From Candidatus Latescibacterota bacterium (GTDB lineage Bacteria; Latescibacterota; UBA2968), in contig OZ241986.1 of assembly GCA_965204375.1 (NCBI GenBank), positions 416,001-480,000 of the forward strand: a stretch of 64,000 nt of DNA, written 5' to 3'. A model generated the notes under the pieces. The model saw nothing but the letters and a program-made list of their open reading frames with translations. It did no database searches and was not told the origin of the DNA. Shown here piece after piece: positions 13,463 to 17,715 of this stretch (positions are counted from its first letter, which is position 1; each line of letters begins with the position of its first letter). Made by a program: the position numbers and the translations under genes.

Positions 13463-14506
13463 TTACCTGATTTTTAATAATAATATCAGCAAAAGAGGTG
13501 TTACAATGGCCTGTAAAAGTGTAAATCTGACCAGTACCTGTGTATTGGACCAGCCCCATTTCTGGCGGACGTGATCGTGCAGGGGATAACGCACCTGTTT
13601 GAAAATGCCGATTTTAAAAAAGCGCAATAAAGCGACTTTTAGAAGACCTGTTGCGCCATTGACCAGCACCACTCCGGCTACTACAATAATCAAAAACGGA
13701 TTCCCACACGCCAGGACCAGCATGCCGAGTAATAAGCCCAGAGGGCGAGATCCGGCATCGCCCATCAACACGGCACTTGGATTGGCATTGTGCCATAAAT
13801 AGCCCACCAGACACCCCGTCATGACAAAAGCCATTACTGCCCAATTAGCCGCCTCTTTGTAGTGCGGCACAAGCAGATATTGGGCAATATCTCGGTGTCC
13901 CACAATGACGTACAATGCGCCACCCAAAAAAATGAATGCCAGCATGCACAAACTGCCCGATAGGCCATCCACGCCGTCTGTGCAATTTGTAGCATTAATG
14001 GCCATCCACAACAAGCACGTAGCAATGGGGATATAAATCCAGGGTGGCACAATAACCGATGTCTTAATTAGTGGTAGCCACACTTCGACTGCTGCCATCT
14101 GGCACACTACCATAGCTCCTAAAATGGAGATGATCAGATCGAACAACCCCATGCGGTATTCACTCCATTCATAGCGGTCATCGAAAAATCCCACCAGCAT
14201 TGCCAAAAACAGGCATCCCAAAGCGGCCAGATATCGCGTTCCAAGAGGGACAAATAAGAACCCGACAACTATAAAAATAGAAATGAAAATAACGCCTGCC
14301 CCTACGGGCTTGCCTTTATTTAGTGCGGCGCCAACAGCATGCTCACGTCCCTGGTCCTGTGGTAATCTGTGCCACAATTTGGGTAAAATCCTCCAGGTGA
14401 AGACGCAGGCGAGCGCGGTACCTGCACCAACCAAAAAGAGATAAGAAGTGAAGAGGCGAAAAGGCCCATAGATGTCCAACAATTGCTCTCCCAACCAGTA
14501 GAGCAC
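13463..14506 (-). CDS. mraY: Phospho-N-acetylmuramoyl-pentapeptide transferase
   Basis: About 10 TM; 'GFFDD', 'NATNCTDGVDGL', 'MGDAGS', 'PLHDH..GWS'; GTG start. Confidence 0.85.
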   Translation of the reverse strand: MLYWLGEQLLDIYGPFRLFTSYLFLVGAGTALACVFTWRILPKLWHRLPQDQGREHAVGAALNKGKPVGAGVIFISIFIVVGFLFVPLGTRYLAALGCLFLAMLVGFFDDRYEWSEYRMGLFDLIISILGAMVVCQMAAVEVWLPLIKTSVIVPPWIYIPIATCLLWMAINATNCTDGVDGLSGSLCMLAFIFLGGALYVIVGHRDIAQYLLVPHYKEAANWAVMAFVMTGCLVGYLWHNANPSAVLMGDAGSRPLGLLLGMLVLACGNPFLIIVVAGVVLVNGATGLLKVALLRFFKIGIFKQVRYPLHDHVRQKWGWSNTQVLVRFTLLQAIVTPLLLILLLKIR

Positions 14507-14622
14507 AGCGCAAACTCCCGTGTGATATGATTTGAAAAACGAAACAAATCACCCCAATGTAAGGTCTCTATGATTAAAGGGCAAGTCTGAACTCATATCC
14601 GATTCTTTGTAAAAGAAAAACC

Positions 14623-14651
14623 TTGACGCGAAAACAGAGACTTTCTATTTT
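14623..14651 (+). promoter_or_regulatory. sigma70 promoter of the His leader transcript
   Basis: TTGACG-17nt-TATTTT, ending 9 nt before the leader ATG. Confidence 0.65.
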
Positions 14652-14660
14652 GTGGTCATT

Positions 14661-14810
14661 ATGAACGCATTGATCAAAAAACCGGTTATTTTTTTAAATC
14701 CAAACACAGTTTTGGCCGGGGATGCGTTTGTCCGTACCGCTCAGCATCATACTCATCATGCTACGTCTGCGACTTTTTGCATGACGCGCTCGGCGGTGGA
14801 TATGTCATAA
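14661..14810 (+). CDS. Putative histidine attenuator leader peptide (49 aa, HHTHH)
   Basis: MNALIKKPVIFLNPNTVLAGDAFVRTAQHHTHHATSATFCMTRSAVDMS*; four CAT codons within 14745-14759; upstream of a terminator and hisI. Confidence 0.75.
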   Translation: MNALIKKPVIFLNPNTVLAGDAFVRTAQHHTHHATSATFCMTRSAVDMS

Positions 14811-14846
14811 TAGTTGTCCAATGAAATGAACAAGCCCGCTGTCGAG
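14789..14846 (+). promoter_or_regulatory. Antiterminator helix of the His attenuator
   Basis: ctcggcggtgg (14789-14799) pairs 11/11 (3 G-U) with ccgctgtcgag (14836-14846), the terminator 5' arm and loop. Confidence 0.7.
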
Positions 14847-14866
14847 AGACAGTGGGCTTTTTTTTT
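14832..14866 (+). terminator. Attenuator terminator
   Basis: aagcccgctgtc-GAGA-gacagtgggc followed by T9, directly before the AGGAGA RBS. Confidence 0.85.
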
Positions 14867-14878
14867 AGGAGAATGACC

Positions 14879-15601
14879 ATGGCACACAATGACGATGCTT
14901 ATGGACGCATGATGTGGGACTTTCATTGCGGCATGCCCGCAGAGGAAATTGTAGAACGCGAAGATGGATACATAACTGCAGGTGTTTCCAGCGCTTATTT
15001 TAATCCCCATAGCGACTGGCCTCTGCATCAGCGAGAATCGATGAACTATGTTCGTGGATGCGTTCTCGACATCGGTTGTGGACCCGGACGTCATGCTCTC
15101 TACCTTCAGGAAGAAGGTTTTGATGTTTTGGGCATTGACGCTTCTCCTCTTGCGATCAAGGTGGCGAAAGAACGCGGTCTCAAAAAAGCCAGAGTTTTGA
15201 GTGTAACACAAATTTCCTCTCGGCTCGGTCAGTTTGATACCATGCTCATGATGGGCAGTAATTTCGGTCTCTTTGGCAATTTGAAGCGCGCCCGGTGGCT
15301 TTTGAGAAAGATGCGCAATATGACATCTTCCGATGCGAGAATTATTGCCGAATCCGCAGATCCTTACAGCACGACGAGAAAAGCGCATCTGGATTATCAC
15401 AAATTGAATCGCGAGCGGGGCAAGTTCTCGTGTCAGCTCAAAATTCGCATTCGATACGAACATTATATCGGCGCCTGGTTTGAATACCTCAAAGTATCTC
15501 GAAAAGAGATGGCATTTATTCTGGAAGGTACTGGCTGGCAAATTTCGCGATTTATTCCGGAAACGGAGAGTGTTTATGTCGCGATTATTGAGAAAATTTG
15601 A
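14879..15601 (+). CDS. Class I SAM-dependent methyltransferase
   Basis: '[11 protein letters not shown]' motif I, 'GIDASP'; N-terminal 'EIVEREDG'. Confidence 0.85.
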
Positions 15602-15627
15602 GGACAACACAAAAAAAGGAAATCGCT

Positions 15628-16056
15628 ATGGCTATTGATCACACACTCGAAGAAGGCACAGAGATCCATCTCGATTTTGAAAAGGTCCGCAAGGTTGCAC
15701 AGACCGATCACCCCATCATACCCGTTGCGGTACAGGATGTGGATAGCAAAGCCGTTCTCCTGATTGGCTATGTCAATGAACAGGCGCTTGATTACGCGCT
15801 TGAACACCGCGTGGCAACTTTTTGGAGTACTTCGCGCAATGAACTCTGGATTAAAGGGGCCACGTCTGGTGATATGCTCGAATTGGTCGATGTGCGCATC
15901 AACTGCGAGCAAAATTCACTGCTCTATCTCGTGCGCCTCAAAGGCGATGGATCGTGTCATACGAAAGAAAATGGGCAAGCGCGTTACGGCTGTTATTACC
16001 GCAGTATCGATAATGGAAAATTGATATTTGTAAATCCCAAAACCATACCGGAGTAA
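15628..16056 (+). CDS. hisI: Phosphoribosyl-AMP cyclohydrolase
   Basis: 'FWSTSRNELWIKGATSG', 'NCEQNSLL', 'SCHT', 'GCYYR' metal-binding Cys. Confidence 0.9.
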   Translation: MAIDHTLEEGTEIHLDFEKVRKVAQTDHPIIPVAVQDVDSKAVLLIGYVNEQALDYALEHRVATFWSTSRNELWIKGATSGDMLELVDVRINCEQNSLLYLVRLKGDGSCHTKENGQARYGCYYRSIDNGKLIFVNPKTIPE

Positions 16057-16062
16057 TGAGTC

Positions 16063-16563
16063 ATGCCATCAGAGGTCGTTACCCGAATCCGCGCAGATCA
16101 ATGGCAAATTTTCAGGGATGTGCGTCTCCGCGCACTTGAAGATGCGCCTTATGCTTTTGGTACAACGCTGGCAGAAGGGAAAAAAAGAACCGATAGAGAC
16201 TGGCAGGATATGGCGAGAGGCCATGCTACTCTGTCGGATCGCGCTTATTTCATGGCTTATGTGGGGGATAATCCCTGTGGTATGGCGGGTTGTTATCGCA
16301 GGGCATCAGACGTAGTAGTGCTCACCGCGATGTGGGTCGCACCCGAATTTCGAGGACAAAATATCGGTGAGCAGATTGTGTGCGCCGTCATAGAATGGGC
16401 ACGAGAGGGTGGGGCCACTATGCTCGAAGCCTGGGTCAGTGAAAATAATCCAGCGCGTTTTTTTTATCAAAAAATCGGATTTGAAGAGACTGATTTAACC
16501 GAACCGCTTCGCTCAGATTCCAAAATTCAGATGGTTTTGATCAGGCGCGATATTGCGTCCTGA
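16063..16563 (+). CDS. GNAT family N-acetyltransferase
   Basis: 'RLRALEDAPYAF', 'MWVAPEFRGQNIG', 'ARFFYQKIGF'. Confidence 0.85.
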   Translation: MPSEVVTRIRADQWQIFRDVRLRALEDAPYAFGTTLAEGKKRTDRDWQDMARGHATLSDRAYFMAYVGDNPCGMAGCYRRASDVVVLTAMWVAPEFRGQNIGEQIVCAVIEWAREGGATMLEAWVSENNPARFFYQKIGFEETDLTEPLRSDSKIQMVLIRRDIAS

Positions 16564-16571
16564 AATCGGGG

Positions 16572-16600
16572 TTGATTCACTATCTTCTCAACAGTATATT
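16572..16600 (+). promoter_or_regulatory. Putative sigma70 promoter of prs
   Basis: TTGATT-17nt-TATATT. Confidence 0.55.
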
Positions 16601-16675
16601 GCTCACATGGGAAATGGTGTAAAAATGCGGTTGATTCAGACAAATCAGAGCACTCGACGACAGGAGGGAGAAAAC

Positions 16676-17650
16676 GTGGGTTACGATCTCAAAGTTTTTT
16701 CAGGTAATACCAATCGACCATTGGCAGAAGATATTTGCAATATTCTCGATACTCGGCTTGCCGAGGCCACTGTGAGTCAGTTTTCAGGTGGCGAAACACA
16801 TGTGCAAATCGATGAAAACGTGCGCGGCTGCGATGTTTTTATTGTTCAACCTCTTTGTGCAAATGAAGAAGAAGGAATCTCGCCCAATGACGCTTTGATG
16901 GAACTTCTCATCTTGATCGATGCTGCGCGACGCGCCTCTGCCCGACGCATCACAGCGGTTGTACCCTATTATGGCTATGCGCGGCAGGACCGCAAAGACC
17001 GCCCCCGCGTGCCTATCACAGCCAAACTGGTCGCCAATATGATTTATACCGCTGGGGCGAGGCGGGTTTTAACCCTGGACCTGCACGCCAATCAGATCCA
17101 GGGCTTCTTTGACATACCTGTTGACCACCTCTATTCCATTAACATTTTAGGCGAATACTTCAGGCTAAAAAACCTCAAAAACCTCGTTGTTATGGCACCC
17201 GATGTAGGTGGTATAAAAATGGCACGCGCTTATGCCGAACTACTCGGTGCGCCATTGGCTATTGTAGATAAACGCCGCTGGAGTGGTCAAAAAACCGAAG
17301 TTCTGAACGTTATTGGCGAAGTAAAAGACAAAAATATCGTCATTGTTGACGATATTATCTCTACGGGTAGTTCTCTCATCGAAGCCGCTTCTGCATTAAA
17401 AGACAAAGGCGCACGCGATATATGCGCTACTATTGTTCACCCGGTGTTGGCAGATCCCGCCGTTGAGCGCGTGGAAAATTCCATTCTTACAGAGCTTGTC
17501 GTTTCCAATTCCATTCCCGTGCCCAAACGCGCCCAAAATGGCAAAATCAAAATTCTATCAGTTGCTCCTATTCTCGCCGAATCCATCCGTCGCATCAACA
17601 ACGATGAATCCGTCAGTAATCTCTTTGCCAATGCGAAGGTGGAGGGATAA
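16676..17650 (+). CDS. prs: Ribose-phosphate pyrophosphokinase
   Basis: 'VPYYGYARQDRK', 'DLHANQIQGFFDIPVD', 'IVDDIISTG'; GTG start after AGGAGG. Confidence 0.97.
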   Translation: MGYDLKVFSGNTNRPLAEDICNILDTRLAEATVSQFSGGETHVQIDENVRGCDVFIVQPLCANEEEGISPNDALMELLILIDAARRASARRITAVVPYYGYARQDRKDRPRVPITAKLVANMIYTAGARRVLTLDLHANQIQGFFDIPVDHLYSINILGEYFRLKNLKNLVVMAPDVGGIKMARAYAELLGAPLAIVDKRRWSGQKTEVLNVIGEVKDKNIVIVDDIISTGSSLIEAASALKDKGARDICATIVHPVLADPAVERVENSILTELVVSNSIPVPKRAQNGKIKILSVAPILAESIRRINNDESVSNLFANAKVEG

Positions 17651-17684
17651 GTTGCGCGAGCGTAAAAGGGTTTGGTTAAAAAAT

Positions 17685-17715
17685 AAAAACCGACCTGATG
17701 ATGAGGTCGGTTTTT
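17685..17715. terminator. Bidirectional intrinsic terminator
   Basis: aaaaaccgacct-gatgatg-aggtcggttttt. Confidence 0.8.

Follow-up and report, generated by a model that had tools for sequence, protein, structure and literature searches.

In the trp-type attenuator (trpL), four RNA segments form three stems: segments 1 and 2 pair as the protector, 2 and 3 as the antiterminator, and 3 and 4 as the terminator. The enterobacterial his leader is described as encoding a short peptide in which seven His residues stand in a row (PMC3896937). Candidate His attenuators have also been proposed in the Firmicutes (Bacillus cereus group, Peptostreptococcaceae and Erysipelotrichales), and are presented as lineage-specific and undetected by the Rfam His_leader model RF00514 (PMC9413887, PMC2965389). 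Sensor ORFs at the 5' extremity of the transcript are documented for Actinobacteria: the Corynebacterium ilvB leader (ilvL) is described as a leaderless sensor ORF (PMC5784534, PMC11857589), and mycobacterial poly-Cys short ORFs as leaderless attenuators which act by sequestering the ribosome-binding site rather than through a terminator (10.1101/834739). We found no published description of attenuation or leader peptides in Latescibacterota, in a literature search that was thin on subscription papers, older comparative attenuation surveys included.

The window analysed here is a 64,000-nt stretch of DNA, the closest named relatives of which are Ca. Latescibacterota, in keeping with the candidate-phylum host presumed in the original prediction. 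We read the region from 14623 to 14866 of this window as a histidine-sensing, ribosome-read transcription attenuator of the 1:2 / 2:3 / 3:4 type, placed before a methyltransferase-hisI unit; this putative function, judged from anatomy, conservation and computed folds, would have a probability of roughly 0.88. The same leader is found upstream of hisI in 39 genomes (21/21 of the same genus, g1; 15/15 of genus g7; 3/3 of genus g6), which are kin and are not to be counted as independent trials. Its features are as follows:

14623..14651, + strand: sigma-70-type promoter, -35 TTGACG, 17 nt, -10 TATTTT; TTGAC and the -10 pattern are invariant in 39/39 aligned relatives
14658..14660, + strand: predicted transcription start (A14658) and 3-nt 5' leader, with no Shine-Dalgarno
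14661..14810, + strand: leader ORF of 49 codons, of which codons 2-24 are spacer-like; frame conserved in 39/39
14735..14745, + strand: segment 1, protector strand, pairing with 14788-14798 (1:2 stem) in the RNAalifold consensus and the naked full-length fold; it would lie under a His-stalled ribosome
14745..14759, + strand: sensor, four His codons (29, 30, 32 and 33), all CAT, from the sequence and the relatives
14768..14781, + strand: small inner hairpin, placed after the His codons and before segment 2, seen in the alignment; putative pause hairpin
14789..14799, + strand: segment 2, antiterminator strand within the ORF, pairing with 14836-14846 (duplex, alignment and folding)
14832..14866, + strand: intrinsic terminator (segments 3:4), 12-bp stem at 14832-14859 and T-run to 14866 (sequence and alignment)

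The original prediction had named most of this anatomy. Its promoter TTGACG-17-TATTTT at 14623-14651, its ATG located 9 nt 3' of the -10 box without a Shine-Dalgarno, its 49-aa ORF at 14661-14810 with CAT CAT ACT CAT CAT as the sole His residues, and its terminator at 14832-14866 are all present in the sequence. It had called the attenuator complete, which holds for promoter, ORF, antiterminator and terminator, but the conserved protector (1:2) stem had been overlooked.

The hisL-like logic that had been proposed is likewise supported: the locus shares with enterobacterial hisL a His-codon leader peptide and mutually exclusive antiterminator and terminator stems before a his gene (PMC9413887, PMC3896937), yet it does not belong to the Rfam His_leader family. 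RF00514 has no match in the window at the gathering threshold, nor is it among the 8 Rfam matches obtained within 14500-15000 at E up to 10, and the trpL model RF00513 yields a chance-level match only (17 bits, the cut-off being 41). The three-stem arrangement is that of trpL, with His codons in place of the Trp codons. Unlike hisL, the leaders found here have 46-50 codons with 2-6 interrupted His (49 aa in this genome, with four His in five codons), segment 2 lies wholly within the ORF, the 5' leader is probably 3 nt long and lacks a Shine-Dalgarno, and the gene set controlled would be hisI with passengers instead of a complete his operon. The Firmicutes His leaders, by their published descriptions, share with this one the attenuator/antiterminator/terminator layout and the escape from RF00514; they belong to another phylum and carry three to five His in a row. 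With the leaderless leaders of Actinobacteria, the common element is a sensor ORF with its start at the 5' extremity of the RNA, whereas the amino acids differ and transcription there begins at the start codon itself, against a predicted 3-nt leader here. Of the undescribed variant that had been suggested, the near-leaderless start is supported by the conserved spacing, but His attenuators beyond Proteobacteria (PMC9413887, PMC2965389) and leaderless attenuator peptides (PMC5784534, 10.1101/834739) are both published already.

The promoter match taken alone is not above chance (2 sites, compared with 2.4 in shuffles). The distance from the -10 box to the start codon is 9 nt in 30 of the 39 relatives, 7 nt in 5 and 6 nt in 1, while the start codon of the three g6 genomes lies 30-32 nt past the -10 box and is accompanied by a Shine-Dalgarno-like motif; a further leader, in genome G024 of genus g5, has its start codon 29 nt past the -10 box, also with a Shine-Dalgarno. 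The 6 relatives spaced at 6-7 nt all lack a Shine-Dalgarno, and none is visible in the 9-nt group. Across this genome, 343 promoter-like sites (TTGAC-17-TANNNT) were examined for the position at which long ORFs begin: 11 such ORFs (7 distinct genes) start 6 nt past the site, compared with 0-2 at each of the offsets 0-5 and 7-18, so that offset 6 appears to be the usual start site. Five of the probably leaderless genes in this 6-nt peak are copies of one transposon-like gene. Because a pyrimidine-purine step occurs 6 nt past the -10 box in 27 of the 30 relatives of the 9-nt group, transcription is predicted to begin at 14658, leaving a 3-nt leader, and on these sequence patterns we regard that start as fairly probable. 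In-frame upstream starts were considered and rejected: GTG 14652 adjoins the -10 box, and longer open frames exist in some relatives only.

The same His attenuator could instead be translated from a longer transcript, issued from an upstream promoter, in which case it would not be near-leaderless. Such an arrangement would agree with the absence of any long ORF 9 nt past the -10 box among the 343 promoter-like sites, the leaderless peak being at 6 nt. It is nevertheless unlikely, given the promoter invariant in 39/39, the pyrimidine-purine step at offset 6, the lack of a Shine-Dalgarno at both short spacings, and an upstream gene, mraY, that lies on the opposite strand. In the contigs of four RNA runs, two overlap the leader. 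The first spans 14573-14866 and ends at the last T; the second spans 14668-14819. They were counted neither for nor against, because the first begins upstream of the promoter, a single study stops at that T, T-runs break contigs, and contigs show neither ends nor strand.

The near-leaderless reading places the initiation codon of a sensor ORF close to the RNA end, and the ORF itself bears the marks of such a sensor. Its frame is open in all 39 relatives, beginning with ATG in 38 and GTG in 1, and the indels in its alignment are multiples of three. His makes up 176 of the 1876 leader codons of these relatives, compared with 2.6% genome-wide, and all of them fall within codons 25-35; at the latter frequency, four His in a five-codon window of an ORF like this one has p of about 1e-4. 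CAT is used in 147 of the 176 His codons, against a genome-wide CAT share of 44%. The genome carries one tRNA-His, with anticodon GTG, and CAT read by wobble might sharpen the sensing of histidine. Rough counts of the ratio of non-synonymous to synonymous changes give 2.1 (g1) and 1.5 (g7) for codons 2-24, which show no sign of purifying selection, and 0.36 (g1) and 0.64 (g7) around the His cluster. From these patterns, the leader ORF is a sensor that would be translated, and not a protein gene; the peptide has no Pfam or NCBIfam match, and none of the 4 versions searched was found in the protein collection. A scan of the genome for a His cluster followed by a terminator returned two matches, namely this leader and what we take to be the C-terminus of a chaperonin-like protein.

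Could the frame and the CAT repeats be incidental, within a structured RNA controlled by a riboswitch or a protein and not read by ribosomes at all? Segments 1-4 are conserved as nucleotides and the peptide sequence is free of purifying selection, as would be expected for such an RNA. However, only frame-keeping indels occur, a start codon is kept in 39/39, CAT and CAC are exchanged synonymously at the His positions, the leadered relatives have a Shine-Dalgarno before the same ORF, and no Rfam riboswitch or T-box matches the region. We thus consider this alternative extremely improbable, and retain a leader read by the ribosome.

The predicted pairing of 14789-14799 with 14836-14846 is complete (11/11, including three G-U pairs, -20.3 kcal/mol). 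A duplex as good arises in 18 of 1000 dinucleotide shuffles of the ORF, and an upstream partner as good exists at 4 of the 413 hairpin-plus-T6 sites of the genome, where the median is -10.0. RNAalifold, left unprompted, returned as consensus the protector stem 14735-14741/14792-14798 together with the terminator. Over the 39 relatives, the cells of the alignment are paired at 98% in the terminator, where 2 pairs show two-sided changes, at 88% in the protector stem, where changes are one-sided only, and at 90% in the inner hairpin 14768-14781, two pairs of which have changed on both sides (in 13 and 2 sequences). The antiterminator is paired at 96%, has no two-sided change when the register is fixed and scores no better than its shuffles; this is expected if each of its strands has also a second partner. 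Among terminator-loop variants, the bases located 5' of segment 2 vary to match, and for 3 of 4 loop types the segment of the same group binds best; in the reverse cross test, the own loop is best for 2 of 4 segment types. The altered segment 2 of G024 still gives 13 bp and -24.6 kcal/mol.

An additional helix across the His codons had also been proposed (14756-14761/14779-14784). It exists in this genome, but only 66% of its cells are paired over the 39 relatives and 57 of 500 shuffles equal it; being not conserved, it was rejected as a part of the switch. Stems within the first 70 nt, seen in the fold of this genome and absent from the consensus, were set aside too.

Constrained folding of both states, suggested with the original prediction, bears out its ribosome-position logic, in which a stalled ribosome frees the antiterminator and a ribosome at the stop covers it. 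With the RNA cut just past the terminator loop and the upstream part held unpaired, a ribosome on any His codon leaves the antiterminator formed in 39/39 relatives; with a ribosome on the stop codon and the upstream part held unpaired, the antiterminator forms in 0/39 and the terminator in 39/39. When the ribosome is given a local footprint, the antiterminator is present in 37/39 on the last His and in 0/39 at the stop. In the full-length RNA at equilibrium the terminator wins at every ribosome position, so that switching would have to be kinetic. The minimum-energy fold of the naked nascent RNA is often the antiterminator, not the protector.

The following course of events would account for these features. 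RNA polymerase would start about 3 nt 5' of the AUG, and a ribosome would load without a Shine-Dalgarno. When charged tRNA-His is scarce, the ribosome is expected to stall at codons 29-33, where it would sit over segment 1 and leave segment 2 free; the latter may then capture the emerging 5' arm and loop of the terminator, allowing transcription to read into methyltransferase-hisI and perhaps GNAT-prs. With ample histidine, the ribosome would reach the stop codon and mask segment 2, the terminator would form and the RNA would end near 14866. If the leader is not translated at all, the 1:2 stem can presumably sequester segment 2, again letting the terminator form. The leader peptide would be a by-product. 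Such a mechanism is in itself the unchanged textbook one, probably carried by a new sequence family with a long spacer peptide and a probable 3-nt leader.

The 39 genomes with the leader represent three Latescibacterota genera in two families, g7 belonging to another family than g1. HisI was found in 59 of the 61 genomes searched. A covariance model built from 27 of the 39 leaders was run on 151 genomes of the phylum and matched 65 of them at E up to 0.001, including 38 at E below 1e-19, which are all g1, g6 or g7 and largely the training set. G024 was matched at E 2e-11 and has a 51-codon leader with five His; when this locus and 8 weaker matches were inspected, a His leader was recognized in G024 only. 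The weak match in L168 was rejected as a His leader, its His run being off-frame within an Asn/Asp-rich leader. Upstream of hisI, His-rich leaders with terminators of different sequence occur in 3/3 genomes of genus g3, and another 56 loci from the class include 4 with such a leader (G101, G106, G112 and G128, the last with a tandem pair); among the remaining 52, one flagged locus was spurious and 51 were without a His leader, a few of these having little upstream DNA. The leader was found before hisI neither in the 2/2 genomes of genus g2 nor in most other class members examined. The His leader is, in other words, patchy within the class and fixed in three genera. Five of another 49 hisI loci (L096-L144, mostly from other phyla) were flagged, comprising 2 repeats of Latescibacterota-type leaders, 2 unclassified records and 1 spurious case; none of those flagged came from the Verrucomicrobiota, Chloroflexota or SAR324 records of this set. 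On a possible horizontal transfer between families the signals point both ways: the HisI tree unites g1, g6 and g7 (86/88, without a star), but the mraY genes of g1 and g7 show a slight closeness as well, and those of prs are only a little more distant.

The genes presumed to lie under this control are:

14879..15601, + strand: class I SAM-dependent methyltransferase (profile families), a passenger; its Shine-Dalgarno, 14867-14872, is outside the terminator stem
15628..16056, + strand: hisI, phosphoribosyl-AMP cyclohydrolase of a divergent type (PF01502), the only such gene found in the genome
16063..16563, + strand: GNAT acetyltransferase, probably co-transcribed (6 nt past hisI); a second hisG occupies its place in other genera
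16676..17650, + strand: prs, PRPP synthetase (profile families), which may have its own promoter and is possibly the end of the methyltransferase-hisI unit

The leader had been described as lying upstream of hisI; hisI does belong to the controlled unit, but as its second gene, the first being the methyltransferase. A search from 14861 to 17700 revealed no TTGAC-type promoter; past prs, at about 17685-17715, lies a hairpin accompanied by A- and T-runs. The interval between leader and hisI in the 21 g1 genomes is empty in 10, contains methyltransferase fragments or a short remnant in 3, a full methyltransferase in 7 (one of them with an extra prs) and an extra prs alone in 1. A full-length methyltransferase thus follows the leader in 7/21 g1 genomes, and in 14/15 of g7. 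Other inserts between leader and hisI are a PhzF-like gene in g6 and synthetase remnants in g3 and g5, and a second hisG is found past hisI in g7 and in one g6 genome. Since the genes between leader and hisI are so variable, the methyltransferase can be regarded as a dispensable passenger. A histidine-related role for it found no support, the family being generic and having relatives in other genera that lie away from hisI. The g7 locus L080:4433-5290 holds a divergent hisG under the attenuator, about 29% identical to the hisG of the present genome, with a canonical copy elsewhere.

Such turnover could also mean that the attenuator, real ancestrally, has decayed or become near-constitutive, and is now mostly a fixed terminator that dampens hisI in a lineage living in association with hosts. 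Loss, truncation or exchange is frequent for genes behind the leader (methyltransferase, PhzF-like gene, second hisG, synthetase remnants), two of the 39 relatives are down to two His codons, and the leader was not found in the g2 genomes and most other class members examined. Against decay, promoter, frame, His codons and the three stems are intact here and in the 37 relatives that retain at least three His, in contrast to the freely drifting spacer codons. We judge decay quite improbable, and a working attenuator remains our reading.

The HisI protein scores above the Pfam cut-off for PF01502, and reaches 92 bits against an NCBIfam cut-off of 126. Aligned with PDB 1zps, its three Cys and its CH motif correspond, and the Asp-rich motif is replaced. 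No other PF01502 copy was found in this genome, where members of the hisG, D, B and A/F families are present, and the position after hisH-hisF-proB, home of the canonical hisI in some other genera, is without hisI here. In most of the class, the divergent type has apparently taken the place of the canonical hisI; its close relatives occur in Verrucomicrobiota, Chloroflexota and SAR324 records. The genes hisG, hisD, hisB, hisFH and hisA are located elsewhere in the genome, and a scan for a His leader with terminator before them returned nothing. Tandem repeats, with repetitive ORFs in several frames, lie between hisD and a hisC-like gene (G000:C1 4267386-4268213). In L189 (G128; about 880-1220), and with the same sequence in L108, tandem His-leader attenuators stand ahead of a metG-like gene, after which come hisI and a prs of the second type. 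The His leaders of L042, L049 and L165 (g3 and g5) precede thrS-like and metG-like genes that are broken or incomplete, thrS being named by sequence appearance. The broken synthetase genes suggest an older cassette in which synthetase paralogs accompanied hisI.

Taken with the spacing of promoter and ORF, this gene content invites another framing, toward which we lean slightly. Here the sensor ORF of a His attenuator would be initiated 3 nt from the RNA 5' end without a Shine-Dalgarno, being neither canonically leadered nor strictly leaderless, while sister genera would keep a 29-32-nt leader with a Shine-Dalgarno. Instead of a whole operon, the attenuator would gate the pathway through one divergent HisI standing by itself, whether or not joined by an additional hisG or prs, and would offer a site at which passenger genes can land and be exchanged. 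If true, the leadered and near-leaderless orthologs would form a natural before/after pair for leader loss, and could readily show whether a ribosome initiating only a few bases from the RNA end is fast enough to drive an attenuator. Ribosome-read His attenuation would be extended to Latescibacterota, and an alignment and a covariance model are now available for an RNA family absent from Rfam.

Analogous leaders precede trpE and ilvB in the same genome. With His, trpE and ilvB leaders together in one genome, amino-acid control in this uncultured phylum would seem to depend on the coupling of transcription to translation. The first of the two additional leaders (G000:C1, about 2955980-2956250, minus strand) is a 34-codon Phe/Tyr/Trp-rich leader with a terminator, placed before trpE-trpG-trpD, trpC, trpF and a tyrS-like gene, all named by sequence appearance. 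The second (G000:C1, about 5458220-5458430, plus strand) has 26 codons, is Thr/Ile/Val-rich and precedes an ilvB-like gene, with a promoter and a terminator. An Asn/Asp-rich leader is found at G000:C1 5467969-5468113 (plus strand) and at L168:1400-1560, its terminator being similar enough to the His terminator for a weak model score; the leader of L168 precedes an aspS-like gene.
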